A program made the position numbers and the translations under genes. Shown piece by piece: positions 2,828-35,309 of a DNA stretch of 64,000 bases. How positions within the stretch are numbered: the stretch's first letter is position 1; the number at the start of each line of letters is the position of its first letter. Source of the DNA: a bacterium. GTDB lineage: Bacteria; SAR324; NAC60-12. Under the pieces are notes generated by a model that searched no databases, was not told the DNA's origin, and worked only from the letters and a program-made list of their open reading frames with translations. The DNA lies in NCBI GenBank assembly GCA_965205865.1, contig CBDBHR010000023.1, positions 96,001-160,000 of the forward strand, read 5' to 3'.

Positions 2828-3333
2828 TCAGGCACTTCCTTCGTTGAAAATTTCGCGCCCTATCAGCATCCGACGGATCTCATTCGTTCCTGCACCTATA
2901 TCATAGAGCTTGGCGTCGCGCAGTAAACGACCGGTCGGATACTCATTGACGTACCCGTTTCCACCAAGACTCCGGATTGCTTCCAAGGAGACTTTCACCG
3001 AATTTTCTGATGCAAAAAGAAGGCAGGCTGCCGTGTCTCGTCGAGAGACCTGGTTCAGGTCACAATTGTTGGCCACTCGGTACACAAACGCGCGGGATGC
3101 CTGCAAAGCGGTATACATATCTGCTATTTTTCCTTGCATCAATTCAAAGGTTCCGATGGGTTGGTTGAATTGGGTGCGTTCATGAAGATAAGGAAGGGTG
3201 ATATCCATGGCGGCTTGCATGATGCCAAGCGCTCCTCCTGCCAGCACGACTCGTTCCAAATTCAAGCCCCGCATCAGCACGCGCGTACCGCGATTTGTCT
3301 CCCCAATTCGATTCTTTTCCGGAATTCGTTTTT
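2828..3333 (-). pseudogene. C-terminal fragment of an isovaleryl-CoA-type acyl-CoA dehydrogenase
   Basis: LNLERVVLAGG...QFNQPIGTFELMQGKIADMY...LGGNGYVNEYPTGRLLRDAKLYDIGAGTNEIRR; similarity extends upstream (RIPEKNRIGETNRG) to about 3333, and the N-terminal half is absent. Confidence 0.85.
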
Positions 3334-4166: not shown

Positions 4167-4329
4167 CGATGGGTTTTACGCATTAAAGGGCAGAACTGAC
4201 ACAGAGCGTCCTGCAAAAGATCCGCACGGTGGTGATAATTGTAACCCCTGATTGCACCGGTTCAATAGCTTTTTACCCATTCAGAGATTTCTCATTCCGA
4301 ACGAATGTGAGGAATCCTGAAGATCTCTT

Positions 4330-4497
4330 CCTGCGGTCTATCCCAGCTATAGCAGCCGCTATTCCCGAAGAGATGCGCTTCATTTCAAACAGTTTCACAG
4401 CCACCGCCATTCACGCTTCCTGCTCAAACTGCGAACGAGTGGCTTGCAAAATATCAGGCAAATTTGCTGGATATTCAATCGTCATTTTTGATTCCAT
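4330..4497 (-). pseudogene. UPF0175-family (antitoxin-like) remnant
   Basis: Manual translation MESKMTIEYPANLPDILQATRSQFEQEA*MAVAVKLFEMKRISSGIAAAIAGIDR with an in-frame TGA at 4411-4413; 3' end lost. Confidence 0.65.
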
Positions 4498-4667
4498 CTT
4501 TCCTCTGAGGATGAGTCATTCCACCGAATAAAATTGTAGCAAAGATTTGACAGAGAGACAAGTAGCTCAACGAACTACAACTGCAAAGAGCTTGTTTAAC
4601 AGTGAAAGTATTCCTCCAGTCTGCAAACAATTTTGCTGGTGACCCCTCATTACATTCCCCGTCTTGA

Positions 4668-5296
4668 AAAAAAATTGATCGCGCATAAAAAAATGTTTGC
4701 ATTTTATAATTTTTTTCTATAATCTGTCTCAAAAAGATTATGATAAAAAATATATCGGTTGAAATTGACCGGTTAAAACTATGTCAATATCCATATAAAT
4801 CAATTATTTCTATGATTTATAAGATTATGTTGCTCGAACCGATAATCGGCATCAGATAAAATAAAATTTAATTATTATTTGATTCTTTGAAAATGATTAT
4901 TTATAATAATTGCAGATACAAACAAAAGAAACCTCTCCCCCATGAAGCGAACGACAGCGAAACATTGGCAGCTTCGCTTGGGACTATCGCACCTGAAGAA
5001 GAAATCATCAGGAGCTGAGCTATCAATTTTTGCTAATTTTAAAAAAATTGATCGCGCATAAAAAAAAGTTTGCATTTTACAATTTTTTTCTATAATCTGT
5101 CTCAAAAAGATTATGATAAAAAATATATCGGTTGAAATTGACCGGTTAAAACTATGTCAATATCCATATAAATCAATTATTTCTATGATTTATAAGATTA
5201 TGTTGCTCGAACCGATAATCGGCATCAGATAAAATAAAATTTAATTATTATTTGATTCTTTGAAAATGATTATCTATAATAATTGCAGATACAAAC
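4668..5296 (+). repeat. Direct duplication of an approximately 255-bp AT-rich upstream region (about 4668-4923 and 5041-5296)
   Basis: Near-identical copies starting aaaaaaattgatcgcgcataaaa and ending ataattgcagatacaaac. Confidence 0.95.
5252..5291 (+). promoter_or_regulatory. Sigma70-like promoter with an overlapping palindrome (candidate BlaI operator)
   Basis: TTGATT (5252-5257), 17 bp, TATAAT (5275-5280); imperfect inverted repeat TATCTATAAT-A-ATTGCAGATA (5271-5291) covers the -10, about 30 bp before the blaI-like start. Confidence 0.6.
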
Positions 5297-5322
5297 CAAA
5301 ATAAGAAAAGATAAGGAGATGA

Positions 5323-5691
5323 ATGGCAGAAAAGATCAGCAATGCGGAACGGGTCGTGATGGAGGTTTTATGGGAAAAATCACCGTTATCGGCCCAAGAG
5401 GTGGTTGAAGCCGTTGCCCTGCAAAAGGACATGCATGAGAAGACCGTGAAGACGCTGTTGAACCACTTGTTAAAGAAAAAGATTTTGGGGTTCGATAAGG
5501 AAAAGAGAAAATATCTGTATTATCCCCTGCTCAGCCGAAAAGCGTACGTGCAATTTGAAAATAAAAAATTTTTAGAGAATTGGTTTGGTGACAAAGTCTC
5601 GCATCAATTGCTGGTCAGTTTTGCTGCTAAAGAATTATTGAGCAAGCAAGAAATCGAGGAATTGAAAAAACTATTAGATGAAATGGATTGA
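5323..5691 (+). CDS. BlaI/MecI/CopY family transcriptional repressor
   Basis: ISNAERVVMEVLWEKSPLSAQEV...TVKTLLNHLLKK...KYLYYPLLSR...LSKQEIEELKKLL; followed by an M56 gene. Confidence 0.95.
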   Translation: MAEKISNAERVVMEVLWEKSPLSAQEVVEAVALQKDMHEKTVKTLLNHLLKKKILGFDKEKRKYLYYPLLSRKAYVQFENKKFLENWFGDKVSHQLLVSFAAKELLSKQEIEELKKLLDEMD

Positions 5692-5710
5692 TCCATTGAG
5701 GAGGTGTTGA

Positions 5711-8533
5711 ATGGCAACTCTATTGTACGGATTAGTGGAGGCCACCCTGTGGTCCAGTCTCTTAATCGTTTTCGTGTTCTTGATTCGCAAACCGGTGGTT
5801 CGTTATTTCGGAGCAAAATGGGGTTACGCGCTTTGGTTGCTCCCCGCGCTTAAAATGATGATCATCGTTACCCCCCAAACCCAACTCAGTCTCCTTCCTT
5901 CCTGGCAAACCATCCTTTATAACTTCAAGATGCAGCAAGGGGTGTATGCCCTGCTGCAAAACAAAAAGCCTCTCACGGCTTCCGAAGCATTATTCCAACA
6001 GATCAAAGCAGAGAATACGGCTCGCATAGAAGCCATGAAAACTGCCGTGATGCAGGAGGAGAGATCATCTTTCCCTGCGAATCGCATCAGTGAGCAAAGC
6101 CTCCTTGCCTCAGGTTCCCCATCATCCGACCCGGTTGGCGGGTGGCCTGTTTTTTCCAAAATAGACGGCATGACGATACTCTTCTTCGCGTGGCTTGGCG
6201 GTTTCATGGTGATGGGGCTGATCACCGTAGGCGGGCATGCGCGTTTGCAGAAGCAACTGCAGCGAGAAAAGCGCAAACCTTCCCCGGAAATGAGATGGCT
6301 GATCGAAAAACTGGCTCGCAAAATGGGCTTGAAGTTCCGGGGAGAGGTGCTCGTCTCTGCCCGCATTCAGGCACCGGCGGTGACTGGATGGCTGCATCCC
6401 AAATTGGTGCTGCCCCTCCGGTTTGCCGAATTCTATTCTAAACAAGAAATGGAATTCATGCTCAGCCATGAACTGGTCCATCTGCAACGCAGAGATTATC
6501 TCTTTATCACCTGGGCGTTGTTGCTCAAGTGTATTTATTGGTTCAACCCGTTGGTCTATCTGGCCTATCCCCTCTTCCGCTTGGATCAGGAACTGGCCTG
6601 CGATCAATTGGTTATAACCTCCGTTGCCCCCCAGGAACGGAAATCGTATGGATTGACCATACTCAAAACGTTATCCCAGCCGGAAATGATGTTTGAAAAT
6701 TTCCAGGCGGGGTGCTTTTGGTTTACTTTTTCTCAAATGAAAGAAAGGATTGCTATGATAAATCATCATCGAAACTCAAAAGGGCGTTCCATGCTGGCCC
6801 TCATCAGCATGATTGTACTTGGTTTCACGGCCTTGACCTTTGCCGCCTCCGACATGGTCAAAGACCCCACGACCGGTAAAATGGTCACTGCACCTGAATA
6901 TGGCGGGACAATAACCTATGCCTCAAGAGGCGAGCCGGCGGGTCCTGACGCCTTGGTCTCTGGTCCAAAGGTATTATCGTACGTCTCTGTCGTCAACGAG
7001 AAGCTAGCCATCGGGGACTGGGCAACGCCCAGGGACGAATGGGACTTTACAACCTCATACGTACCATTTTCTGTCCTTAAAGGACAGCTAGCTGAAAGCT
7101 GGGCAACGCCCGACACACTAACTATCGTCGTCCACATCCGCCAGGGCGTTCACTGGCATGATAAGCCGCCGATGAACGGTCGGGAGCTGACTGCCCAGGA
7201 TATCGAGTACAACTATCACCGTTTGTTGGGTATGGGTAGCGGTTTCACCGAACGTAGCGAATGGGCTGCTCAACGCTTCACCGGTGTGCAATTTGAATCG
7301 ATAGAAGCCACCGACAAATGGACGGTTGTTTTTAAGCTGAGGGAGCTAAGCGTCGGTGCGCTGGGGAATATCCTCGACGGCCTGAACACCTGGATATACC
7401 CCCCCGAGGTGATCAAGGAACACGGTGACGTTTCGGATTGGAGGAACCTGGTCGGCACCGGACCCATGATGCTGACTGACTGGGTCAAGGGAAGCAGCTG
7501 GACCTACACCAAGAATCCTGACTACTGGGGCTACGACGAAAAATACCCGGAGAACCGCTTGCCCTATATTGACCAGTTGAGGGCCCTGATTATGCCCGAA
7601 CCGGCAACATCTCTAGCGGCACTGCGCACGGGTAGGATTGATTACATGGGTCCGATCGGCCAAACTCAAATGAGGACTCTCGACCAGGTAGAGAGCCTCC
7701 AGCGGACCAACCCCGAACTCGTGATATTGCCGTTCGCCGAACGGTCGGATAATGGTTTGGGTATGAACGTTCAGTTGCCGATCTTTAGCGACATCAGGGT
7801 GCGCAAGGCAATGCAGATGGCAATAAACCTCGAGGAAATCAACAACGCCTACTTCAAGGGTTATGCAGATATAGTACCTCAGGGGCAGCTAAGCCGGTTT
7901 ATGACAGAGGTTGTCACCCCATTTGAAGAGTGGCCCGAAGATGTCAAGAAGGTCTTTACCTACGACCCGGAAGGTGCCGAAGCGTTGCTTGACGAGGCCG
8001 GATACAAGCGCGGCGCCGACGGCATTAGATTTAAGACCAAGTTGATGCACATCGAGCGGTACGATTTGAGCTATGTAGAATTAGTCGCTTCATACTGGAA
8101 TAAGATTGGCATTGATGTAGAGATTGGTGTAGAACCACTAGCTTCCTTTGTCGCTAGAAGAAATCAGAGGGATTTCGAAATGTCCAGTGCGGAAGCGGCC
8201 GGGCGTGGGGACCCATTGGGATGGCAATATCGCTATATGACGGCCGCAGGACACAACAGCTCCAATGTCAACGACCCGGTTTATGAAGCCATGTATGAAG
8301 CCGGCGCAGCCGCTACCACCCTCGAGGAGCAGAACAGGATAGCTGGAGAGCTGAATCAGTATGGGATAGAGAAGTTCTGGACGATATTTGGTCCTGTGGC
8401 CCCACAGTATCAGGCGATCCATCCGTGGATCAAAGGTTTTAACGGTGAATATCACTTGGGACGCGATCAACACAACACCCTCTTCACCCGCCTCTGGATT
8501 GATAGTGCGCTGAAGAAAGAAATGGGGCATTAG
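5711..8533 (+). CDS. Fusion of a BlaR1/M56 metallopeptidase and a family-5 ABC substrate-binding protein
   Basis: N-terminal M56 motifs (YALWLL, PAVTGWLHPKLVLP, HELVHLQRRD, YWFNPLVY, DQELACD, KERIAMI), a hydrophobic helix, then a full SBP_bac_5 domain (PEYGG, LAESW, IRQGVHWHD, GTGP, KNPDYWG, DIRVRKAMQMAIN) in one ORF. Confidence 0.92.
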   Translation: MATLLYGLVEATLWSSLLIVFVFLIRKPVVRYFGAKWGYALWLLPALKMMIIVTPQTQLSLLPSWQTILYNFKMQQGVYALLQNKKPLTASEALFQQIKAENTARIEAMKTAVMQEERSSFPANRISEQSLLASGSPSSDPVGGWPVFSKIDGMTILFFAWLGGFMVMGLITVGGHARLQKQLQREKRKPSPEMRWLIEKLARKMGLKFRGEVLVSARIQAPAVTGWLHPKLVLPLRFAEFYSKQEMEFMLSHELVHLQRRDYLFITWALLLKCIYWFNPLVYLAYPLFRLDQELACDQLVITSVAPQERKSYGLTILKTLSQPEMMFENFQAGCFWFTFSQMKERIAMINHHRNSKGRSMLALISMIVLGFTALTFAASDMVKDPTTGKMVTAPEYGGTITYASRGEPAGPDALVSGPKVLSYVSVVNEKLAIGDWATPRDEWDFTTSYVPFSVLKGQLAESWATPDTLTIVVHIRQGVHWHDKPPMNGRELTAQDIEYNYHRLLGMGSGFTERSEWAAQRFTGVQFESIEATDKWTVVFKLRELSVGALGNILDGLNTWIYPPEVIKEHGDVSDWRNLVGTGPMMLTDWVKGSSWTYTKNPDYWGYDEKYPENRLPYIDQLRALIMPEPATSLAALRTGRIDYMGPIGQTQMRTLDQVESLQRTNPELVILPFAERSDNGLGMNVQLPIFSDIRVRKAMQMAINLEEINNAYFKGYADIVPQGQLSRFMTEVVTPFEEWPEDVKKVFTYDPEGAEALLDEAGYKRGADGIRFKTKLMHIERYDLSYVELVASYWNKIGIDVEIGVEPLASFVARRNQRDFEMSSAEAAGRGDPLGWQYRYMTAAGHNSSNVNDPVYEAMYEAGAAATTLEEQNRIAGELNQYGIEKFWTIFGPVAPQYQAIHPWIKGFNGEYHLGRDQHNTLFTRLWIDSALKKEMGH

Positions 8534-8542
8534 AGGTTTCAG

Positions 8543-9502
8543 ATGAGAGCCTATCTCATCAGGCGGTTATTGCTGATCCTGCCCACCCTGTTTCTCTTGA
8601 GCATCCTGGTCTTTCTCTCGGTGCGCTTCATCCCTGGCGATGTGGTGGACGTAATGATAGGTAGGATGGAATACCAAACAACGGGGACGCTTGACCGTGC
8701 AGCCGTTGAGCGCCGGCTGGGATTAGATGTGCCTGTCCATGTGCAGTATGCGCGCTGGATAGGAGGCATTTTCCTGCACGGCAGCCTTGGCGAATCGCTG
8801 ATGGGCCATGGGGCGGTGGAGGAGAAGATCATAGATAGATTGCCGGTCACCCTTGAGCTTGGCCTCCTGGCCATCGTAATCGGGCTCTTGATCGCCCTAC
8901 CGGTCGGCATCTACTCGGCGATTCGCCAGGATACGCTCGCCGACTACCTGGGGCGCTCTCTGGCTGTCATCGGCTTGGCCACGCCGAACTTCTGGCTGGG
9001 AATTATGGTGATGATCTTCCCAGCCATCTGGTGGGGCTGGGCGCCGCCACTGGAACTGGTTGCTTTCACCGAGGATCCGCTGGGGAATCTGGCGGTGTTC
9101 CTCACTCCCAGTCTGATTCTGGGAACAGCTTCCTCTGCCGCCACCATGCGGATGATGCGCACCATGATGCTGGAGGTGCTAAGGCAGGACTATATCAGGA
9201 CCGCCTGGTCCAAGGGACTCAGGGAGCGGGTCGTGGTGATCCGGCACACCCTCAAAAATGCCCTCATCCCGGTTATCACCCTGATTGGTCTGCAGTTGCC
9301 GATCCTGGTCGGGGGCGCCGTGATCATGGAGAACATCTTCAACCTGCCGGGGATCGGTCGTCTCCTGGTGAATGCCCTCAATGAGCGAGACTACCCAATG
9401 GTCTCCGGAATCAACCTCTTTTTCGCCACCGGGGTGGTCCTACTCAATCTCCTCATCGACCTGATTTATCCCTATTTGGATACGAGGGTGCGGTATGAAT
9501 AA
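8543..9502 (+). CDS. Peptide/nickel ABC transporter permease (DppB/OppB-like)
   Basis: YLIRRLL...PGD, EAA-loop region EVLRQDYIRTAWSKGL, HTLKNALIP, IENIFNLPGIG. Confidence 0.93.
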   Translation: MRAYLIRRLLLILPTLFLLSILVFLSVRFIPGDVVDVMIGRMEYQTTGTLDRAAVERRLGLDVPVHVQYARWIGGIFLHGSLGESLMGHGAVEEKIIDRLPVTLELGLLAIVIGLLIALPVGIYSAIRQDTLADYLGRSLAVIGLATPNFWLGIMVMIFPAIWWGWAPPLELVAFTEDPLGNLAVFLTPSLILGTASSAATMRMMRTMMLEVLRQDYIRTAWSKGLRERVVVIRHTLKNALIPVITLIGLQLPILVGGAVIMENIFNLPGIGRLLVNALNERDYPMVSGINLFFATGVVLLNLLIDLIYPYLDTRVRYE

Positions 9503-9625
9503 GGCCAGCGGGTGGTCCTTCCAAACACCCGCCATTTTTTGTAACATAATATTCTCCTGGATGAGGGACTGCTTCGAGGTTCCCCTGTCTTCTGCCTTCT
9601 GTGTCACGAAACCACGTCTCATCTT
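9495..9625 (+). repeat. Post-permease repeat, second copy at about 15303-15445
   Basis: tatgaataaggccagcggg..ccttccaaacacccgccattttt...tctgccttc.gtgtcac shared by both loci. Confidence 0.8.
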
Positions 9626-9815
9626 TGCTTTTGTGTGATTTTCAATGGAGGTAAGCGCCATGAGAAATGTTTCCTCCTCAAAGATTTTGCGTTCGCCCTC
9701 TTACGGCCTCTAAAAGTGTCCTTTTGGTCTTCAAAAAGAAGAGACAGAAATGACCGAGTGGCGAGGGATCCTGTGGAGGAGAGGAAACCAGCAGAGGAGA
9801 AGGAACGAGGGGAAT

Positions 9816-10889
9816 TTAAGAAAGTTTTGAGGGAGAGCCCTCCCAGGGAATTCCTTGAAAAATGGCTTCGAGAGAAGATTCTGTCATCAGTCTCTCAATG
9901 AGGATTTCGAGGTCGTCGACCGACAGCGAAGCGAGACGATCTTGATAAGGTTTTGCCGTTTCACCAAATTTCTTTTGGAGTTGTTTATTGAGAATATGCT
10001 GTGCTTCTTCTTGACGACCTTTTTCGATTCCTTTCTCGATTCCTTTCTCGATTCCTTTCTCGATTCCTTTCTCGATTCCTTTTTGTTCTAATTGTTCAGC
10101 GACTGTCATAATGACCTCGTGAGCCTCTTCAAAGCTGAGCAGGGTTTGCACTTGTTGCACCACTTCCTCTTCTTTGAGATGGGAACTGGCTTTAAATAAA
10201 TAATAGAGTACCTCCTCAAGATACCGCAAACCACTGCCTTCTTCAAATAGTTTTTCAAACAAAGGCCAGATGACCGTGGCTAAAAGATCGGAAAGCTCTG
10301 GGGAATCGATATGTTTCATAATCATCAAAAACACTCTCAAAAACAAGGTTCCTTTGATTTGATCATCACTCATTCCTGATAAATCCACCAGGTGATACTC
10401 AAAGGAAGGCACATAGGGTTTGAGGGCCTCGGGAACCTTGAGAAAGTCATGAAAATGCAGGGCGGCGGTCCACTTTTTAGGACCTTGAAAAAGCGTAATG
10501 GGAAAAACAATGGGGAGCCCTTCTTGAGGAAATTGCTTCTGGTATTGCTCATAAATCCCCACTAAATAGCTCAAGTAGCGATAGCTCATCTTGGCTTCCG
10601 GCTCTTTTTGATGCTCGAAATGAATCAGGAAGAAGCCCTTGATTTCCTGGCCAGCGCTTCCTTTAAAACGAGTTTCATAAAGGAGATCACTTTTACGACT
10701 CTTCAACGCTTTTTGCACAAAGTCTCCTGGAGCTAGACGTAATTGGGACCAATCCATAATGGCTTGAATGGAATCAGGCAAATATTCTTTAAAAAAAGCC
10801 TCAGCCACCTTTAAATCGCTCCACTGCTGAATAAAAAAATCATTGTGAGGAGTACCTTTTCGTTTGGAGGGCTTTTTCGATTGGGCCAT
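9816..10889 (-). CDS. Rpn family recombination-promoting nuclease / putative transposase (YhgA-like)
   Basis: PHNDFF, SDLLY, FLIHFEHQ, and a C-terminal tandem (GIEK)n repeat encoded by a 12-bp repeat at about 10018-10085. Confidence 0.9.
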   Translation of the reverse strand: MAQSKKPSKRKGTPHNDFFIQQWSDLKVAEAFFKEYLPDSIQAIMDWSQLRLAPGDFVQKALKSRKSDLLYETRFKGSAGQEIKGFFLIHFEHQKEPEAKMSYRYLSYLVGIYEQYQKQFPQEGLPIVFPITLFQGPKKWTAALHFHDFLKVPEALKPYVPSFEYHLVDLSGMSDDQIKGTLFLRVFLMIMKHIDSPELSDLLATVIWPLFEKLFEEGSGLRYLEEVLYYLFKASSHLKEEEVVQQVQTLLSFEEAHEVIMTVAEQLEQKGIEKGIEKGIEKGIEKGIEKGRQEEAQHILNKQLQKKFGETAKPYQDRLASLSVDDLEILIERLMTESSLEAIFQGIPWEGSPSKLS

Positions 10890-11004
10890 GGTCCATGATC
10901 CTTTCTTGAGTGGGGAAGCCAGGTTTTATATAGGAAAATCGAAAAATTCGGTTTTTAGGCGCGGGCTCTGCCTTTTTTCTGCATTTCAGGGCTTGCAATC
11001 TAAT

Positions 11005-11127
11005 ATGGTGAGCCAGCCGTGGGTCAAAGGTTACAACGGGGAAGATGAGCTGGGAGCAATGAACCGTGTGCTCGTCTTAGCCTGCCTCTGGATTGACCAG
11101 GATCTGAAGCAAGAGATGGGCTTCTAA
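11005..11127 (+). pseudogene. Orphan 3' end of a family-5 SBP gene
   Basis: SQPWVKGYNGEDELGAMNRVLVLACLWIDQDLKQEMGF* matches the C-termini of the three full SBPs. Confidence 0.85.
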
Positions 11128-11155
11128 CCGAACCACCTACCCACTCACATTAGCT

Positions 11156-11195
11156 ACCCTCCCACCCACAGTGGGGATGGGAGGGTTTTTTATTT
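11156..11195 (+). terminator. Rho-independent terminator
   Basis: ccctcccacccac...gtggggatgggaggg stem followed by a T run, after the SBP remnant. Confidence 0.7.
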
Positions 11196-11204
11196 GCTTG
11201 GTGC

Positions 11205-11693
11205 TCATCTCTCTTGGTCATCGCTCGGCTCAGGCTCTTCTTTGATCGGTTCAAACTTGCCATTCATCGGATTCCAGACCTGTATCCCTTCCTTTTTTGC
11301 AGCTGCGTTTAAATCTCGATCACATGAAATCAGCAATTCCGTTCCGTCTATCAAAGCCGAAGCTAATTGAAAGGCATCACTCCCTTTAATTTTATGTTGC
11401 AACCCGATCTGATACGATTTTTCAATAACAGCAAGAGACGCATTGACAATGTTGAAGAGTTTTCATCTTTTCTGAAACCTGCTTACTGCTTCATCTAATT
11501 TTGGTTGGGTCAACTCTCGATTGCGGCGCATTGCTGACAACGCTGCGGCAATCTCGGCTTTTGTAATGACAGCCGTAGAAAATACGACGTCTTCTTGATG
11601 AACCTGCTCCACAACATATTGTTTGACTTCAGCGGAACCGGTTTCATTGACAAATTCTTTGACCAGGGCAGAGGTATCGAAATAGAGCTTCAT
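11205..11693 (-). pseudogene. PIN-domain (VapC-like) toxin with an in-frame TGA
   Basis: MKLYFDTSALVKEFVNETGS...RFQKR*KLFNIV...KGSDAFQLASAL...ISCDRDLNAAAKKEG; one frame, stop at 11463-11465. Confidence 0.85.
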
Positions 11694-11694
11694 C

Positions 11695-11919
11695 TTAGGG
11701 TTTACGATGTTCATAGATAATATTCGAAGCCAATCTTGCTCCCGGTTCAGGATCAATTGCCTTAAATTCTTCAAAGGCCGCTTTATCCCCAATTTGAATA
11801 TACGGACTCTTCTGCTCTGCTTGCTCTGCTTCGACAATCACTCGTATCTCAGCATCAGCGGGAAGGTGATGCCGTTGGACTTGTGTGGGAAACTCCTTAA
11901 CCGTTGTGGTAAATTCCAT
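11695..11919 (-). CDS. Putative antitoxin upstream of the PIN toxin
   Basis: 74-aa ORF (MEFTTTVKEF...) ending 1 bp before the toxin start; positional inference. Confidence 0.6.
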   Translation of the reverse strand: MEFTTTVKEFPTQVQRHHLPADAEIRVIVEAEQAEQKSPYIQIGDKAAFEEFKAIDPEPGARLASNIIYEHRKP

Positions 11920-12025
11920 GCTAACCTTTTTGAAAATCGTTCCTGTGACAAAGGGATTATACCCTACTTTTTCAAATTCTACATGAACCCCGGAATTAAG
12001 CAAATCTAAGCTTCAAAAAAGAAAA

Positions 12026-12550
12026 GATGGGCGGTGGAGGAGAAGATCATAGATGGTGATGATCTACCCGGCCATCTGGTGGGGCTGGACACCGCCGCTG
12101 ACCTACGTCGGCTTCACCGAAGACCCCTGGGCCAATCTGGGCATACTCATCATCCCCGCGCTGATTCTGGGGACCTATCTGGCAGCGAGCACCATGCGCA
12201 TGACGCGCACGATGATGCTGGAGGTGCTGCGCCAGGACTACGTGAGGACCGCGTGGGCCAAGGGCCTCAAGGAGCGCAGGGTGGTGCTGCGCCACGCGGT
12301 GAAGAACGCCCTCATCCCGGTGGTGTCGCTCATCGCCTTGCAGATCCCCATCATCGCCGGTGGCTCGGTCATCATCGAGAACATCTTCAACCTGCCGGGG
12401 CTCGGCCGCTTCATGTTGAGTGCCCTCAACGAGCGCGACTACCCTGTGGTTTCCGGCATCAACCTGCTCTTCGCCTCGGTCGTGGTGGTGATCAACCTGA
12501 TCACCGACCTGACGTACGCCTTCCTCGATCCGAGGATTCGCTATGAGTGA
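12026..12550 (+). pseudogene. DppB-like permease, 3' half
   Basis: Short gcggtggaggagaagatcatagat piece joined to MVMIYPAIWWGW...DPRIRYE; N-terminal half missing. Confidence 0.85.
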
Positions 12551-13526
12551 GCCACTTCCAGTCGATCCTGGCGGCACGGAGGGCGCTCCCGCAGCCGAGC
12601 GCTGCCGGCCCGTTGCAAGCTTCTTCCGCCGGCTCCTGAAGGAGCAACCGCTGGGAACCGTTGGCGGCCTGATCGTCCTGGCGTTGGTATTCATCACCAT
12701 CTTTGCCGACCAGCTGGCGCCCTACGAATTCGACCGAGGACGAGTGCAAGACCGGATGAAGGAACCGTCGGTCGAGCACCTGCTCGGCACCGACCACGTT
12801 GGACGCGATTTTTTGAGCCGTCTCATCATCGGTGCTCGCCTCTCGATTACGGTCGGGCTGGCGGCAACGGTGTTGAACGTCATCGTCGCCCTGCTCGTCG
12901 GTGGCACGACCGGCTTCATCGGCGGGCGGGTGGACATTTACGCGCAGCGGTTCGTCGATGCGTGGATGTCCTTTCCCGGATTACTCCTGCTGCTCACCAT
13001 CATGTCGATCACCGGCCGTGGTGTGTTGCAGATCATCCTGGTGCTTGGCATCACCGGTGGTATCCCCGCCTCGCGGGTGGTACGCGGCGCGGTGATCGGC
13101 ATCAAGGGAAACGACTACTTCCAGGCTGCCAAGGCGCTGGGAGCCCGCAAGAGCCGGATCTTCTTCCGCCATGTGCTGCCCAATATCGCTGCGCCGCTCA
13201 TTGTCATCTTCAGCATCAACGTCGGTGGCGTCATCATCGCGGAGGCTTCGCTGAGCTTCCTGGGCTTCGGCCTGCCGGCGAACATCCCGAGTTGGGGCGG
13301 CATGCTGAGTCGCGAGGGTCGGCAGTACATGGAGGTTGCGCCGCGACTGGCGCTCTGGCCTGGACTGTGCCTGACCGTGACCGTCTACAGCCTCAACCTG
13401 TTCGGCGATGCCATGCGGGATCTGCTCGACCCCAGGCTACGGGGTGCTCAGGGAAGTTACGGCGCCGCAAAGAAGAAACGCAAAAAAGGGTTCCTCACCC
13501 GGCTCCTCTCCTCTTTCAATTGGTAA
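12543..13526 (+). CDS. Peptide/nickel ABC transporter permease (DppC/OppC-like)
   Basis: HLLGTDHVGRDFLSRLIIGARLS, FRHVLPN, EASLSFLGFG, WGGML, GDAMRDLLDPR. Confidence 0.93.
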   Translation: MSEPLPVDPGGTEGAPAAERCRPVASFFRRLLKEQPLGTVGGLIVLALVFITIFADQLAPYEFDRGRVQDRMKEPSVEHLLGTDHVGRDFLSRLIIGARLSITVGLAATVLNVIVALLVGGTTGFIGGRVDIYAQRFVDAWMSFPGLLLLLTIMSITGRGVLQIILVLGITGGIPASRVVRGAVIGIKGNDYFQAAKALGARKSRIFFRHVLPNIAAPLIVIFSINVGGVIIAEASLSFLGFGLPANIPSWGGMLSREGRQYMEVAPRLALWPGLCLTVTVYSLNLFGDAMRDLLDPRLRGAQGSYGAAKKKRKKGFLTRLLSSFNW

Positions 13527-13711
13527 GCGCATAAAAGCAGCTTCCAGAATAGATCCGCATCATTGGAAGTGATTTTGGAATAGTTCCAAGTCTGCTCCCC
13601 CTGAAAAAACACATTGGAAAGATAGGCTTGAGCTTTTGTTGATCAGGATCGGAAAACGAGCACCACTTGGTGCTGTGAGTTACGAAAGTACTGCAGTTCT
13701 CTGCGTCTTGC

Positions 13712-13826
13712 CCGTGGCTCAAAGGCTATAAAAGGTGAAACCGACTTGTATGATATTTACCATGCTGTTATCGTTTTTTCCCGCCGCTGGATTGACCAGG
13801 AGCTGAAGAAAGAAATGGGGTTTTAG
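13712..13826 (+). pseudogene. Second orphan, frameshifted 3' end of a family-5 SBP gene
   Basis: PWLKGY.GETDLYDIYHAVIVFSRRWIDQELKKEMGF*. Confidence 0.8.
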
Positions 13827-13934
13827 TATTTTCCGGTTAAACGTATCGTCAAGACGGTGAAGTGCGGGATGGCGGCAGAAGCCCGCCATCCCACGATGGT
13901 GCTGTTCCCTGTAGAAAGGCGAAAACAGAATACG

Positions 13935-14704
13935 CTAATCCTTTTCATTTTTTTGTGGGGCATTGGCTCGACTTCGCTTTTGCCCCTTTTCCAGATACTT
14001 CTGAATCTCTTCCAGAGAAAACCGTTTAAGGATCTCATCGGTCGACAGCACACCTAAATGATCACGCACATAATCTTTTTGAAAATCTTCCATCGTATAG
14101 GCCATTTCTAATCCTTCCAAGTGATAGTTCTCAAAGAGTTGATTTAATATCGTGCTGATTTCCCGGGTATGCCCACGGTTTTGACGCGCGGCAAACTCCA
14201 CTTCTCCGGGAATCCCACTGAATAAATGCCAAATCGTATTATGCTCCGCATGCGCGATCTCACTCAGTACAATCATCCGAATGAGATCACTCCCCCGCTG
14301 AATCTCATAGACTCCCTCTTGTATCGCCTGGAACTCAACCTGTGAAGCGAGTTTCTGTGGATAGCGGGAACTCACGCCATAGAGTTGAAATTCCTCTTCA
14401 GCTAACAGATCCTGGAACGAGGGACTGATCTGCATGCGATAATTCACATAATGCCCGGTCAGTTCTTTCAAGGCCCAATCGTCAAAGGGTTCTCTCAACG
14501 ATTTGTAACTGAGCAGATTATATTGCCTCAGATTGTCCAAGCCATCCGGTAAGGGTTCGATCGGATTGCCTGTATCTTTCCTCAGAATAACGACATCCAG
14601 CAGCTGTCTTTTGAGAGATAGATCTTTTTCCAACTCTACAACCCAGGAGGAATCGGTAAAAAATCGGTGAGCGCCAAGCCAAAGAGGCGATGCCAGTTTA
14701 TCAT
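13935..14704 (-). pseudogene. Frameshifted copy of the hypothetical (Rpn-like) gene at 26697-27485
   Basis: Near-identical DNA; A6 at 14658-14663 against A7 in the intact copy breaks the N-terminus. Confidence 0.85.
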
Positions 14705-14874
14705 TTTCCTTTCATCGGCTGAATGACAAAATACACTTGATTATCATTTTATTGTGCCAATCTATAGAAAAACGCACAAGTGCAAATTGTCTTTGAAAAG
14801 GAAATTCTTTCTCTCTATTCCTCTTACTCTACGACCATTGGCCTTTTCTTCCTGCTCTTTCTCTGCTCAAAGTT

Positions 14875-15310
14875 CAACGAGGACCCGCTGGGGAACCTCG
14901 GAGTGTTCCTCATTCCCAGCCTGATTCTGGGGACGGCCTCTTCTGCCGCCACCATGCGGATGATGCGCACCATGATGCTGGAAGTGCTCCGCCAAGACTA
15001 TATCCGCGCCGCCTGGTCCAAGGGACTCCGGGAGCGGGTCGTGATTATCCGGCACACCATCAAAAATGCCCTCATCCCGGTGGTGACCCTGATCGGCCTG
15101 CAGTTGCCGATCCTGGTGGGGGGTGCGGTGATCATGGAGAACATCTTCAACCTGCCGGGACTCGGTCGTCTCCTGGTAAATGCCCTCAATGACCGAGACT
15201 ACCCAATGGTCTCCGGAGTCAACCTCTTTTTTGCTACCGGCGTGGTGCTGCTCAACCTTCTCATCGACCTGATTTATCCCTATTTGGACCCGAGAGTGAG
15301 GTATGAATAA
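14875..15310 (+). pseudogene. DppB-like permease, 3' fragment
   Basis: EDPLGNLGVFLIP...DPRVRYE fused to an unrelated upstream sequence that recurs at about 29230-29360. Confidence 0.85.
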
Positions 15311-15622
15311 GGCCAGCGGGCGGTGCCTTCCAAACACCCGCCATTTTTCGTGGCATACTTCCCTCCAGGATAAGGGATTGCTGTGGGGGTCCCCGTCTTC
15401 TGCCTTCCGTGTCACAAAACCATGTCCCATTGAAAAACGCCATCTCTTGTTTATTGTTCTTTATTTCCGTTTTTGCTATAGTGCTGACACGATACAATGT
15501 GAGAAAAAGCAAGAAATTCGATGAACATGATCTGATCAGAGAGGAATTCGAAAAGGTGCGGAAGGAAATTTATCCTCACAAACCTATCACACTATAAACC
15601 AAATCATTCCAGTACGGGAACC

Positions 15623-15886
15623 ATGAAAGTATTATTAGAACTACCGGATGATGTTCGATCTCTGCCTTTGGAAAAGCAGAAAGAAGAGGTTCTAAGAGCC
15701 TATCAAGCACTCCAACCGGAAAAAGAGTCAAAAAATAGACCTATGGAACCTAAAAAATCAAAATGGTCAAGGATTGTGGAAGAAATTGAAAATGATCGTA
15801 CACTGGATTTAAAGGGATACTCTGTATACCTACAAAAAGATATGCAAGAATTTCGCGAAAATTTTACATTCAGTCATGATCAATAA
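15623..15886 (+). CDS. Putative antitoxin
   Basis: Small ORF directly upstream of a PIN toxin. Confidence 0.6.
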   Translation: MKVLLELPDDVRSLPLEKQKEEVLRAYQALQPEKESKNRPMEPKKSKWSRIVEEIENDRTLDLKGYSVYLQKDMQEFRENFTFSHDQ

Positions 15887-15891
15887 TTTCA

Positions 15892-16341
15892 ATGAAGTAT
15901 TTACTGGATTCCAATACTATCTCCATGCTTTACGATTCTCGAGCAGTAGAACATAGCTCTATTAAATCCAGACTGGAAAGTCTAGATGATGAAGCGGATC
16001 AAGTTTTCGTTTCGGTTTTGACCATTTATGAAATGGAATTTGGGAAGGCCAATGCCCCGGATGATAAAGTAAAGATCATTCAAAAAGACATCCAGCATAC
16101 CTTAAAAAACTTTTCTCTGCTGATCCTCTCTATTCAAGGGGCCTCCCGCTTCGGTGATTTGAAAAAGCGACTAAAGGATTCTAGAAAAATATCTCCTGGT
16201 AATATGAGAAAACACAATGTTGATCTGATGCTCGCTAGTACGGCCATTGTAGAATCTAGTAGTCTTGTTAGTGCAGATAGTATTTATATCGAACTTCAAC
16301 AGCTGGAATCCCAGTTAATAATTGAAAATTGGACGACTTAA
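15892..16341 (+). CDS. PIN-domain (VapC-like) toxin
   Basis: MKYLLDSNTIS...VSVLTIYEMEFG...DLMLASTA...LVSAD...IENW. Confidence 0.88.
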   Translation: MKYLLDSNTISMLYDSRAVEHSSIKSRLESLDDEADQVFVSVLTIYEMEFGKANAPDDKVKIIQKDIQHTLKNFSLLILSIQGASRFGDLKKRLKDSRKISPGNMRKHNVDLMLASTAIVESSSLVSADSIYIELQQLESQLIIENWTT

Positions 16342-16389
16342 GGGAGAGTCGGAGGGTGTTCCAAGGAATCCTTTGAAAAATAACTTCTG

Positions 16390-17120
16390 GAGTGGAGGAA
16401 AAGATTATAAAAAGACAGCTGGTCACCCTTGAGTTGGGGATAATGGCCATACTCATTGGGCTGGTTATCGTGCTACCGGTGGGCATCTACTCGGCGATTC
16501 ACCAGGATAAGGTCGCCGACTACTTGTAGAGCTCCATTGCCATCATCGACCTGGCAACGCCGAACTTCTGGCTGTGCGTGATGGTGATGATCTACCCGGC
16601 CATCTGGTGGGGCTGGGCGCCGCCGCTGGAACTGGTTTCCTTCACCGAAGACCCGCTGGGAAATCTGGCGGTGTTCCTCATTCCCAGCCTGATTCCGGGA
16701 ACGGCCTCGGCGGTTGCCACCATACGGATGATGCGTACTATGATGCTGGAGGTGCTCCGGCAGGACTATATCCGCACTGCTTTGTCCAAGGGGCTCCGGG
16801 AGCGGGTCGTGATTATCCGGCACACCATCTAGTATGCTTTCATCCCGGTGGTCACGCGTTCAGCCGGGCTTATTTGCCGCGCTGCGGACGCCCAACCTCT
16901 CTGCGCTTTGAAATTGACGATCCTGGTAGGCGGCGCCGTGATCATGGAAAACATCTTCAATCTGCCGGGGTTCGGGTGTCTCATGTTAGTGGCCCTCAAC
17001 GAGCGCGACTACCCCGTGGTTTCCGGCATCAACCTGCTGTTCGCCTCGGTCGTGGTGGTGATCAACCTCCTCACCGACATGACGTACGCCTTCCTGGATC
17101 CGGGGATCTGCTATGAGTGA
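16390..17120 (+). pseudogene. Degraded DppB-like permease
   Basis: Permease motifs with in-frame stops (for example tag near 16527 and 16830) and a short foreign insert near 16855-16915. Confidence 0.85.
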
Positions 17121-18102
17121 GACGCTCCCGGTCGACGATGGCGGCGGGACCGGCGCATCGGGCGCTCTCGCTGCCGGGCGCCGCCGACTCGTTGCGAGCT
17201 TCTTGCGCCGGCTGCTGAGGGAGCAACCGCTGGGAGCCGTTGGTGACCTGATCGTCCTGGCGCTGGTGTTCATCACCATCTTTGCGCAGCAGCTGGCGCC
17301 CTACGAATTCGACCGTGGACGGGTGCAAGAGCGCATGCAGGGGCCGTCGGCCGAGCACCTGCTCGGCACCGACCACGTTGGCCGCGACTTTTTGAGCCGA
17401 CTCATCATTGGCGCGCGCCTCTCGATCACGGTCGGGCTGACGGCGACGGTGATGAACGTCATCGTCGCCTTGCTCATCGGTGGCACGACCGGCTTCATCG
17501 GCGGGCGGGTGGACATCTACGCGCAGCGGTTCGTCGATGCGTGGACATCCTTTCCCGGATTACACCTGCTGCTCACCATTATGTCGATCACCGGTCGTGG
17601 CGTATTGCAGATCATCCTGGTGCCCGGCATCACCGGTGGCATTCCCGCCTCGCGGGTGGTACGCGGCGCGGTGATCAGCATCAAGGAAAACGACTACTTC
17701 CAGGCCGCCAAGGCGCTGAGAGCCAGCAAGAGCCGTATCTTCTTCCGCAATGTGCTGCCCAATATCGCCGCATCGCTCATTGTCATCTTCAGCATCAACG
17801 TCGGCGGCGTCATCATCGCTGAGGCTTCGCTGAGCTTCCTGGGCTTCGGCCTGCCGGCGAACGTGCCGAACTGGGGCGGCATGCTGAGTCGCGAGGGTCG
17901 CCAGTACATGGAGATTGCGCCGCGGCTGGCGCTCTGGCCGGGGCTGTGCCTGACCGTGACTGTCTATAGTCTCAACCTGTTCGGCGATGCCATGCGGGAT
18001 CTGCTCGACCCCAGGCTGCGGGGTGCTCAGGGAAGTTACTGCGCCACAAAGAGGAAACGCAAACGAGGATTCCTCACCCGGCTCCTCTCCCCTTTCAATT
18101 AG
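17113..18102 (+). CDS. DppC-like permease, close paralog of 12543-13526
   Basis: Same motifs and near-identical protein. Confidence 0.9.
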   Translation: MSETLPVDDGGGTGASGALAAGRRRLVASFLRRLLREQPLGAVGDLIVLALVFITIFAQQLAPYEFDRGRVQERMQGPSAEHLLGTDHVGRDFLSRLIIGARLSITVGLTATVMNVIVALLIGGTTGFIGGRVDIYAQRFVDAWTSFPGLHLLLTIMSITGRGVLQIILVPGITGGIPASRVVRGAVISIKENDYFQAAKALRASKSRIFFRNVLPNIAASLIVIFSINVGGVIIAEASLSFLGFGLPANVPNWGGMLSREGRQYMEIAPRLALWPGLCLTVTVYSLNLFGDAMRDLLDPRLRGAQGSYCATKRKRKRGFLTRLLSPFN

Positions 18103-21399: not shown

Positions 21400-21795
21400 A
21401 GGGAGTCATGTTATGAAACCGCAAAAAATGAAACTTGTTGCCTCAGTCGTGAGGCTGATCCCGGCAGGCGCCTTGTCTGCCGCAAAAAACAGATTCGCTC
21501 CATGGTGGGGTGAATTATTTTCAGTTTCTTGTAAAGGAGTTCATATGTATTTGAAGAAACTTTAAGCCCCCGTCGTGGGGCTTATCGTGGCAGGCGTCGT
21601 GTCTGCTGTACAAAAACTTGTCCTCGCAAACTTGTCCCCGCGAAAGCGGGGAGCGGAGATCCGATTCGCCCCAGGGCGGGTGAATCATTCTCTTCACCCT
21701 CATTTGAAAGAGGTTACTATGGGTATTCTAAAGAAACTTGTCGCTTCCATCGCGGGGCTGAACCTGGCAGGCGCCTGGTCTGCTGCAAAACTGCA
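21400..21795 (+). repeat. Three imperfect tandem leader units (RBS-ATG-signal-like peptide, hairpin)
   Basis: KLVASVVRLIPAGALSAAK / KL*APVVGLIVAGVVSAVQK / KKLVASIAGLNLAGAWSAAK in one frame; gattcgc..ggtgaat hairpins near 21491 and 21662. Confidence 0.7.
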
Positions 21796-34871: not shown

Positions 34872-35309
34872 AATAAGTTCCAAGCAACAAGTCACAAGTC
34901 CCCAATCCCAAGTTCTACCCCCTTATATTATCTCGACATCAGGGAGAGATCCTTAAGATCCCTCGTTCCCCGTTCCGAGGACGGAACGGCAATGGGGAAT
35001 TTGGAAAATCATCGGCGCCTGAGTGCGTCGGTTTATGGTTCATTGCCCAATCCTGGAGCCAATGAATCGGTTTTTTGATCACTTGAAAATGAAGGAGACC
35101 CAATGTGTAGAGAAATCGTCGAGAACGTGCTTTCGGGGACGAAAGTAGTTTTGAAAGCAACCCGCAATCTTGTTTTTAATCAAAAAGCAGAAAGGAGCAC
35201 CATGAATCGTCAAAAAAGTAGAGAAATCTTCGACAACATGCCTTCGGCAACGAAAGCAGTTTTTAAATCAATCTTTAATTTTGAACATGCAATCGAAAGG
35301 GAAAAAAAG

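Follow-up and report, generated by a model that had tools for sequence, protein, structure and literature searches.

The window analysed here is a stretch of 64,000 nucleotides (nt) from an uncultured bacterium of the SAR324 lineage (assembly GCA_965205865.1), which corresponds to positions 96001-160000 of contig C23 in its own genome of 4.74 Mb (designated G000). It contains an operon-like series of three genes, in which a blaI-like repressor gene is followed by one gene for a fused protein, a BlaR1-type protease of the M56 family joined to a complete substrate-binding protein (SBP) of the kind that serves ATP-binding cassette (ABC) transporters, and then by a gene for a DppB-type permease subunit (Table 1). 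The fused gene starts 19 nt 3' of blaI, and this adjacency of blaI is the same at all six loci compared, three in G000 and three in a sister genome of the same genus, the complete chromosome OZ242383.1 (4.26 Mb), which is a metagenome-assembled genome. The loci of the sister genome are L010, the orthologue of the window locus, L011 and L012.

The start of dppB lies 9 nt after the stop codon of the fused gene, as the initial annotation of the window had it, and the open reading frame (ORF) coordinates and Pfam agree. Its product has the BPD_transp_1_N and BPD_transp_1 domains (Pfam), and the ratio of non-synonymous to synonymous divergence (omega) between the window and L010 is 0.22. No DppC gene follows this dppB in the operon by Pfam or in the tblastn map; a Transposase_31-like gene stands there instead, and likewise in L010. 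The six loci differ in their permease genes: DppB and DppC are both present at one, DppB stands directly 3' of the fused gene at three and after a gap of 567 nt at another, and no permease gene is present at the sixth. No gene for an ABC ATPase occurs within the 64-kb window. The window includes lpxB, which indicates a diderm organism with a periplasm, and the SBP domain would therefore be periplasmic.

Table 1. Features of the blaI-M56-SBP locus and of the cassette remnants downstream of it (TM, transmembrane helix; positions in the window; aa, amino acids)
Feature	Position	Strand	Basis or remark
Upstream copy of the blaI promoter region (direct repeat, 373-nt spacing)	4668-4927	+	Repeat search; 98% to 5041-5300 over 260 nt
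Promoter-proximal repeat copy, contains the promoter-like site and degenerate operator positions	5041-5300	+	
Sigma-70-like promoter, TTGATT-17-TATAAT	5252-5280	+	Consensus match only
ATTAT-N5-ATAAT palindrome	5269-5283	.	Six-promoter alignment; inverted-repeat listing
blaI, BlaI/MecI/CopY-family winged-helix repressor, 122 aa	5323-5691	+	Pfam PF03965; PDB alignments
Fused gene M56-TM4-SBP, one uninterrupted ORF, 940 aa	5711-8533	+	
BlaR1-type M56 gluzincin protease module, predicted as TM1-TM2, outer loop (about residues 55-150), TM3 and a cytoplasmic protease part	5711-6778	+	Pfam PF05569; BlaR1 8exp alignment
HELVH	6467-6481	+	
ELACD	6590-6604	+	
C335/F336 codons	6713-6718	+	
Internal ATG (Met349)	6755-6757	+	AAGGA 5 nt 5'; predicted 592-aa SBP precursor
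TM4, residues 357-379, helix joining protease to sensor, ends TFAA (AxA-like)	6779-6847	+	AlphaFold2 helix; BlaR1 last-helix alignment
Family-5 (cluster C, Dpp/Opp/Nik-type) SBP domain, residues 381-940, swappable sensor module	6851-8533	+	Pfam PF00496; AlphaFold2; Foldseek
DppB/OppB-type ABC permease subunit, 319 aa, intact	8543-9502	+	Pfam; NCBIfam; tblastn map of window
YhgA/Transposase_31-like gene	9816-10889	-	Pfam PF04754, 5e-41; L010 counterpart 5.7e-41
SBP C-terminal remnant	11014-11121		
Half dppB and intact dppC	12053-13523		
dppB fragment, protein 92% identical to the operon's dppB	14870-15307		
PIN-domain toxin module	15623-16341		

The product of blaI is matched by Penicillinase_R over the whole profile (positions 1-115 of 115; 1.3e-29, 103.3 bits against a cut-off of 22.6), and it aligns from end to end with MecI (1okr/1sd6, 7.6e-16) and BlaI (1sd4, 3.9e-14) in the PDB. 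Its residues S99-F100 (5617-5622) align with N101-F102, the site at which BlaI/MecI of Staphylococcus aureus is cleaved. At this predicted cleavage site Ser-Phe is kept in all six paralogues and orthologues of the two genomes, Asn being replaced by Ser and Phe being retained.

The first part of the fused protein (residues 8-350) is matched by Peptidase_M56 over positions 3-296 of the 296 in the profile (6.2e-57, 193.5 bits; cut-off 31) and contains the motifs H253ELVH257, E294LACD298 and K344ERI347. The initial annotation had read a blaI-like gene followed by a 940-aa ORF with an intact M56 domain, one hydrophobic helix and a full SBP, and the ORF calls, Pfam, AlphaFold2 and Foldseek bear this reading out. 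Residues 217-377 align with BlaR1 of S. aureus (8exp; 6.7e-09, phmmer). In this alignment H253, E254 and H257 correspond to H201, E202 and H205 of BlaR1, D262 to D210, E294 and D298 to E242 and D246, Y313 to Y261, and R346 to R294; C335 and F336 fall on the autocleavage bond S283/F284, the P1 residue being Cys here and not Ser. The roles assigned to these BlaR1 residues and to the cleavage site in BlaI/MecI are those given by Alexander et al. (2023, PMC9834060). The catalytic, supporting and autocleavage-site residues of the M56 part are invariant in 15 aligned fused sequences. Both blaI and the M56 part are under purifying selection, with omega values between the two genomes of 0.02-0.08 and 0.26-0.39, respectively.

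The fused protein does not carry the sensor of BlaR1. No match to the penicillin-binding domain PF00905 (transpeptidase-like, SxxK) is found in it, its C-terminal 560 residues being SBP_bac_5, and the NCBIfam model blaR1_generic reaches 141.8 bits where its cut-off is 400, the match lying within residues 155-375 only. Loops rich in K/R are found before TM2 and TM4 and after TM3, and their charges, judged from the sequence, fit the positive-inside rule. The AlphaFold2 model, which was built from an alignment of 120 rows, has helices at residues 2-33, 35-53, 153-185 and 357-379, with low confidence in the M56 part. In the outer loop (about residues 55-150) all paralogues share a conserved first half. 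The corresponding loop of BlaR1, EL1, sits in the active site of the sensor and is expelled by the antibiotic (PMC9834060). It may be speculated that the outer loop of the present protein is a candidate contact for a surface common to all SBP heads.

The SBP part is matched by SBP_bac_5 at residues 457-838 (4.7e-64, 217.2 bits), and the predicted local distance difference test (pLDDT) of the model is about 89-99 over residues 381-940, as opposed to 31-87 in the M56 part. With Foldseek the SBP part gives 172 matches at E ≤ 0.001, including DppA, NikA and OppA chains with target-normalised TM-scores of 0.75-0.82 over about 540-580 columns (for 6ofq_A, E is 6e-36 and the target-normalised TM-score 0.80). 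By these scores to DppA/NikA/OppA and relatives, the SBP part is a complete two-lobe cluster-C fold. The best solved relative matches at E 2.4e-22 with about 21% identity, and no ligand class is assigned by the NCBIfam SBP equivalogs, all of which score far under their cut-offs (the best, nickel_nikA, 91 against 393). A single helix (357-379) stands between the two modules, and in the model only two residues lie between this helix, TM4, and the strand with which the SBP begins, a short distance that would fit mechanical coupling. The N-terminus of the SBP part has no Cys lipobox and is continuous with TM4 of the M56 module.

The SBP domain thus stands where BlaR1 has its sensor, beside a repressor of the BlaI family, in line with the proposal of the initial annotation. 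The protease residues are all kept, as are the Phe residues aligned with the autocleavage site and with the cleavage site of BlaI. In comparison with BlaR1-BlaI and MecR1-MecI of S. aureus and Bacillus licheniformis (8exp-8ext; PMC9834060), the likenesses are the adjacent repressor gene, the M56 gluzincin with HExxH...ExxxD and equivalents of Asp210, Tyr261 and Arg294, a Phe at the positions that correspond to P1' of the autocleavage site and of the repressor cleavage site, and the position of the sensor after the last membrane helix. The differences are that the sensor is a family-5 SBP and not a PF00905 domain, that binding would be reversible and not a covalent acylation, that the outer loop has about 95 residues against about 40, that P1 is Ser/Cys against Asn/Ser, and that the operon encodes transporter subunits and not a beta-lactamase or PBP2a. 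In its M56 domain, its active site and its adjacent repressor gene the system agrees with BlaR1/MecR1; it lacks the penicillin-binding sensor and, to judge from its domains, is not a beta-lactam sensor.

These features suggest a proteolytic switch of the BlaI/BlaR1 family in which the beta-lactam-binding head has been replaced by a periplasmic family-5 SBP domain, joined to TM4 with almost no linker, a reading to which we assign a probability of roughly 0.55. BlaI would repress the promoter of its own operon (blaI, M56-SBP and dppB). Binding of a solute would close the SBP domain, TM4 and the outer loop would relay this change to the zinc protease in the cytoplasm, and the protease would cut BlaI at Ser99-Phe100, whereby the operon would be derepressed.

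Both Pfam domains are present in 10 of the 120 database homologues listed (P0001-P0009 and P0016), seven of them 926-945 aa in length; the other 110 are free SBPs, some of which bear the source label Spirochaetaceae. G000 has three M56 genes, each with blaI 5' of it. Besides the window copy there is an intact copy of 949 aa on contig C26, followed by DppB and DppC, and a copy on contig C30 that is split into 519 and 414 aa, an A-run in it being one A longer than in its orthologue L011. The extra A (L009, about 11485-11502) lies within the SBP part, after about residue 515, and may be either a homopolymer sequencing error or the mark of a pseudogene. In the sister genome all three orthologues are intact, with lengths of 939, 936 and 946 aa. 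Since two-domain proteins occur in the database and three intact fused genes in another genome, the fusion is genuine and not an artefact of assembly. The junction itself, which the initial annotation had placed at about 6780-6900, is corroborated by a contig from a DNA run that spans 6790-7159 with 0 differences, and by RNA-library contigs from two studies that cross it (6523-6883, 6693-6911 and 6773-6917) and are 93-94% alike, that is, from relatives. Contig depth over 7100-9500 was considered as a measure of expression and rejected; at a threshold of 90% most of this depth comes from paralogues, and the joints listed there are cross-paralogue artefacts.

The fused proteins form a narrow group. 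A search scored on the M56 part alone ranks the ten fused proteins named above at the top (80-97% identity), followed by an M56 protein of only 36% identity. Among 61 genomes of the class, the module is found at E ≤ 1e-40 in G000 and in one other genome of the same genus; searches of the others, 35 from the family, 19 from the order and 5 from the class, did not find it, although many of these genomes are incomplete. Within the genomes searched, the clade thus appears to be confined to one genus. A search of a representative library gave no two-domain alignment among the best 150; it yields no count of the architecture, because clustering at 50% puts the fused proteins under SBP-only or M56-only rows. 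From the Protein Atlas came only SBP_bac_5 clusters, as leads with a score of 0.85, and a large M56+SBP cluster was not among them; this result is uninformative on rarity. The sequence of P0122 (394 aa), an M56 protein of the C30 type, becomes divergent midway through TM4 and stops after a further 25 residues; it represents either a variant with no sensor or a gene disrupted by rearrangement.

The two parts of the fused gene have different histories. The M56 parts of the 15 fused proteins are 74-100% identical to one another and make up three orthologue groups; the SBP part is only 43-77% identical even inside one M56 orthologue group. The identities of the M56 and SBP parts are 95% versus 46% between the window and P0005, 92% versus 54% between the window and P0004, and 95% versus 54% between C26 and L012. 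Along the DNA, the window and L010 are 95-97% identical in blaI and the start of M56 and 81-93% in the rest of M56; from about 6772-6921 onward the identity drops to 55-81%, and it returns to 78-92% in dppB. The fall is from 93% to 55% across 6772-7071.

The supply of free SBPs is large. G000 has 135 SBP_bac_5 matches against 18 matches to the ATPase domain oligo_HPY, and 99 intact free paralogues of the window SBP domain, which remain when the two fused ones are subtracted from the 101 ORFs found at E ≤ 1e-60 with a length of 450 aa or more. Family-5 cassettes without an ATPase gene are extremely expanded in this genome, where such a lack is the rule, and several of them have internal stop codons. 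In a FastTree phylogeny of 216 SBP domains (226 assembled, of which 10 were dropped for incomplete coverage), the nearest neighbours of most fused SBP domains are free SBPs. A second tree (IQ-TREE, 42 rows) contains 12 fused domains, the two nearest free neighbours of each and every eighth remaining paralogue; this choice of free rows suits a test of polyphyly and is not a random sample. On it the label 'fused' requires 10 changes, which is no fewer than for shuffled labels (mean 10.6), and in the approximately unbiased test monophyly of the fused SBPs is rejected (log-likelihood difference 2711, p 8.8e-9). On these trees the fused SBP domains are polyphyletic.

The cleanest exchange is seen at L012. 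Its positions 7200-9160 match blaI-M56 of C26 at 94-98%, and positions 9164-10843 match a free SBP gene of G000 (C30:885615-887294) at 98.75%; the exchanged tract extends from the DPSTGK motif, eight codons after TM4, up to the stop codon, where homology ends. The synonymous divergence (dS) of the L012-type SBP is 0.021, in comparison with 0.83 for uvrC and 0.57 for PEPCK in the same genome pair, and no free copy of the SBP of L012 is found in the sister genome. Two further fused proteins, P0004 and P0402, share clusters at 90% identity with free SBPs that carry their own signal peptides. For blaI and M56 dS is 0.09-0.24; these values lie well under the housekeeping baseline, so that the chassis, too, must have moved or been homogenised recently between species. 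No donor of the window's SBP was found, the best free paralogue being 72% identical in G000 and 72% in the sister genome.

At the junction the fused proteins share the pattern GRSMLAL[IL]SMIVLGFT[AT]LTFAA, then SDMVK or QKYVT, then DP[ST]TGK.V.APEYGGT, and they diverge only downstream of it. The QKYVTDP variant equals the mature N-terminus of free SBPs, and its presence in fused proteins marks alternative crossover points. Crossovers have occurred in the DPxTGK..EYGGT motif after TM4 and at the gene end, and blaI-M56-TM4 is a constant chassis on which the SBP has been swapped repeatedly by homologous recombination with the ~99 free paralogues. The three paralogous loci per genome, the distribution over one genus and the repeated exchange of SBPs on a constant blaI-M56 unit go beyond the initial annotation.

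The same junction may be read in another way. The fused frame might yield no stable receptor, the SBP being released by signal peptidase after TM4, or made from an internal start at Met349 or Met361, as an ordinary transport receptor; M56 would then be without a sensor, like the mycobacterial BlaR, or would sense a free liganded SBP docked onto its outer loop. AAGGA stands 5 nt ahead of the ATG at 6755, and the N-terminus MINHHRNSKGRS with its 17-residue hydrophobic stretch and TFAA resembles a signal peptide. The predicted product of 592 aa is similar to the free paralogues (594-597 aa), whose signal peptides end in AAA/AxA before QKYVTDP or DPxTGK; TFAA-QKYVTDP is also the reading in some fused proteins. 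BlaR homologues that have no sensor are known, and P0122 is an example of an M56-only protein. However, TM4 is near-invariant over all paralogues and in every swap, whereas the signal peptides of free SBPs vary freely, and Phe at -3 of FAA is unfavourable for signal peptidase I as a general rule. The AAGGA and ATG nucleotides are conserved at all six loci, but this conservation is inseparable from that of the whole segment and is no evidence of use. Moreover, 10 database clusters and five of the six genomic loci retain the fusion in frame despite frequent recombination at the junction, which would be hard to explain if the frame were irrelevant. We therefore consider release of the SBP unlikely.

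If the SBP does act as the head of the proteolytic switch, blaI-M56-TM4 may be a generic transducer for essentially any family-5 head, in which a Venus-flytrap closure near the membrane suffices; the symbiont population would recombine heads from about 100 cassettes onto three copies of the chassis and so retune the inducing solute. This extension is tentative, and we hold it to be a little less probable than its negation.

The gene order of the locus fits a different role for the SBP, namely that of a membrane-tethered receptor of a DppBC-type permease, with M56/BlaI answering another cue, such as transporter activity or the state of the envelope, and with the fusion serving mainly for co-localisation. 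The fused gene occupies the position of the SBP gene in free SBP-DppB-DppC cassettes, DppB follows 9-16 nt 3' at four of the six loci, and the ATPases, for which the cassettes have no genes, are presumably shared, in line with the counts given above. Yet in the model a tether of about two residues would leave little freedom to dock on a separate permease, and the fused genes are intact in the window, where DppC is lacking, and at L012, where there is no permease. The cleanest swap, furthermore, exchanged the coding part of the SBP alone and left the permeases untouched. Thus, transport as the chief role of the fused SBP is distinctly improbable in our judgement.

Recombination on this scale also raises the question of whether the loci signal at all, or are non-functional, decaying by-products of recombination and of mobile elements among some 100 paralogous cassettes. 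Around the locus there are indeed many fragments of cassettes, along with transposase-like genes and toxin-antitoxin modules; the two genomes do not agree in their flanks, and one copy is frameshifted in an A-run, with truncated forms in other assemblies. Decay would not be expected, however, to leave three paralogues in both genomes, catalytic and cleavage residues invariant in 15 sequences, omega well under 1 for blaI, M56 and dppB, and a frame preserved over many independent swaps. We give this explanation very little credence.

In the regulatory DNA 5' of blaI, the promoter-like site (TTGATT at 5252-5257, 17 nt, TATAAT at 5275-5280) has 10 of 12 consensus matches, in a scan that gives 7 sites in total against 5.1 ± 2.4 in shuffled sequences. 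Promoter-like matches at 6730-6759 and 6855-6882 were considered as internal promoters and rejected, being within chance expectation. The initial annotation had noted a palindrome at the -10 and taken it as a possible site for BlaI. The palindrome exists (TATCT at 5271-5275, AGATA at 5287-5291) and overlaps the -10; as an operator it does not stand out, for, of 1000 mononucleotide shuffles of 5230-5322, 94% contain inverted repeats with 5-nt arms and 29% contain at least the observed number of 6, and it is not kept as a palindrome in L010.

The six aligned promoters share a common layout, in which the C30 type has two ATTAC-N4-GTAAT palindromes. This sequence, which we take to match the staphylococcal bla/mec TACA/TGTA dyads, is present at 7 places in the 4.74-Mb genome, 6 of which form three tandem pairs 5' of the C30 blaI (the three tandem copies of the operator pair lie at C30:351481-351815 of G000). 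Canonical BlaI operators thus appear, from sequence, to be present at the C30 paralogous locus only. At the corresponding positions the window has ATTAT-type sites (5244-5257 and 5269-5283), the second of which overlaps the -10 TATAAT. At the C26 locus, a duplicated stretch is seen at C26:28292-28863, with a stray fragment of the 5' part of blaI (46 positions) at 28456-28593. A scan of 4200-9900 of the window, and of a leader of the free cassettes described below, against Rfam gave nothing near the gathering scores (for the leader the best was gyrA RNA, 20.8 bits against 45).

Several observations weigh against a solute-triggered switch at this locus. The promoter of the window has only the degenerate ATTAT-type sites, which are at chance level in an AT-rich stretch, and a genome search for remote BlaI targets, in which the two palindromes of a pair could have at most 2 mismatches each and had to lie 23-29 nt from one another, gave 11 pairs, of which only the three of C30 are perfect; the others have at least 3 mismatches in total and include a repeat family. 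The output of the operon is thin, consisting in the window of DppB only, with the position of DppC taken by a transposase-like gene. The omega of M56 is only moderately low, a frameshift affects one of the three copies in G000, and other assemblies contain shorter forms. As for the contigs from RNA libraries that cross the junction, these are short sequences of relatives that may stem from carried-over DNA, and they are no proof of transcription. With its low pLDDT, the model of the M56 part supports no structural statement on coupling. Finally, an SBP that is freely exchangeable must signal via features common to very different paralogues.

As to precedents, close ones besides BlaR1-BlaI and MecR1-MecI are the non-canonical BlaIR systems (CenIR of Clostridioides difficile, PvmSR of Pseudomonas aeruginosa and the mycobacterial BlaIR), which likewise combine BlaI with an M56 protein that has no beta-lactam sensor. 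Their heads are disordered, absent, TonB_C, M23 or other, and in the portions of the reports available to us neither an SBP head nor an exchange of sensors between strains is described. About 15,000 M56 proteins have been sorted into 254 InterPro architectures in a 2026 preprint, and the diversity of BlaR C-termini is in print; an SBP is not among the nine common architectures named in the available parts of these accounts (10.64898/2026.04.08.717257, 10.64898/2026.08.03.742534).

The one M56+SBP protein of another kind is P0332, a metagenomic sequence of 834 aa in which an M56 domain is combined with an SBP of family 1/8 (PF05569 with PF13416/PF01547, precomputed Pfam). It resembles the fused protein in the order of M56, transmembrane helix and ABC-type binding protein, and its HELTH and ExxxD motifs are visible; it differs in its SBP family and in an unrelated M56 (33% identity over 37% of the query M56 part), and it is a single sequence. 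As P0332 is unrelated, the combination has arisen at least twice. Binding folds are also joined to membrane proteins outside the M56 family. BvgS, GlnPQ and OpuA are SBP/Venus-flytrap sensors or ABC importers in which the binding domain is fused to the translocator, and sensor kinases activated by an SBP have reportedly been described. Such receptors and fused importers share with the present protein a membrane-tethered binding fold and a presumed closure signal; unlike theirs, the output here would be a site-specific protease acting on a repressor, and not a kinase, a chemoreceptor or a translocator.

The initial annotation did not recognise the architecture as a characterised system, and a full-text search likewise found no paper in which M56 and SBP_bac_5 occur together, although supplementary InterPro architecture tables may list the combination. 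By title, abstract start and term counts, no paper was found on a BlaR1/M56 protein with a substrate-binding protein as sensor domain. The SBP-headed BlaIR with its documented exchange of sensors is therefore regarded as new, while the diversity of BlaR sensor domains is already published.

BlaIR systems are the textbook sensors of antibiotics, and it has recently been argued that most members sense other signals. To our knowledge, no ligand is known for a BlaIR member that does not sense an antibiotic. With an SBP as the head, the signal is in principle discoverable by ordinary ligand screening, and the activation of M56 by a reversible ligand could for the first time be tested against that by covalent acylation. 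The precisely bounded exchange of SBPs on an unchanged chassis suggests a generic coupling, which bears on transmembrane signalling and on the engineering of proteolytic switches that respond to solutes. The system likewise illustrates how substrate induction can be wired to individual cassettes in a genome whose SBP repertoire is very large. If the generic transducer holds, it would be a natural modular design for protease-based biosensors, in which the specificity of the sensor is changed by cassette exchange and not by point mutation.

The free SBP cassettes have a conserved 5' leader of about 300 nt, for example at C30:887390-887695 of G000 (L024 4391-4696, - strand). It gives 70 blastn matches in the genome, seven of them near-full-length (236-311 nt) at 86-98% nucleotide identity, and it has a Shine-Dalgarno sequence and an in-frame ATG leading into MSIIKKLVASFVGLNPAGPRSA ahead of the signal peptide. 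The leader could be a common promoter/leader or a leader peptide, and it is likely a recombination substrate.

Downstream of the operon, the region 9816-18100 consists of decayed SBP-DppB-DppC cassettes interleaved with the Transposase_31-like gene, an ORF of 232 aa (13935-14633, - strand) and the PIN module, and further cassettes, both decayed and intact, follow in the window. In two free SBPs, of 659 aa (21575-23554) and 673 aa (35103-37124), the SBP_bac_5 match begins only at residue 173-181; their N-terminal extension is probably in part in-frame leader and not real protein. Upstream, an ORF of 150 aa beside recO (2828-3280, - strand) contains the C-terminal domain of an acyl-CoA dehydrogenase only and is probably a truncated gene.

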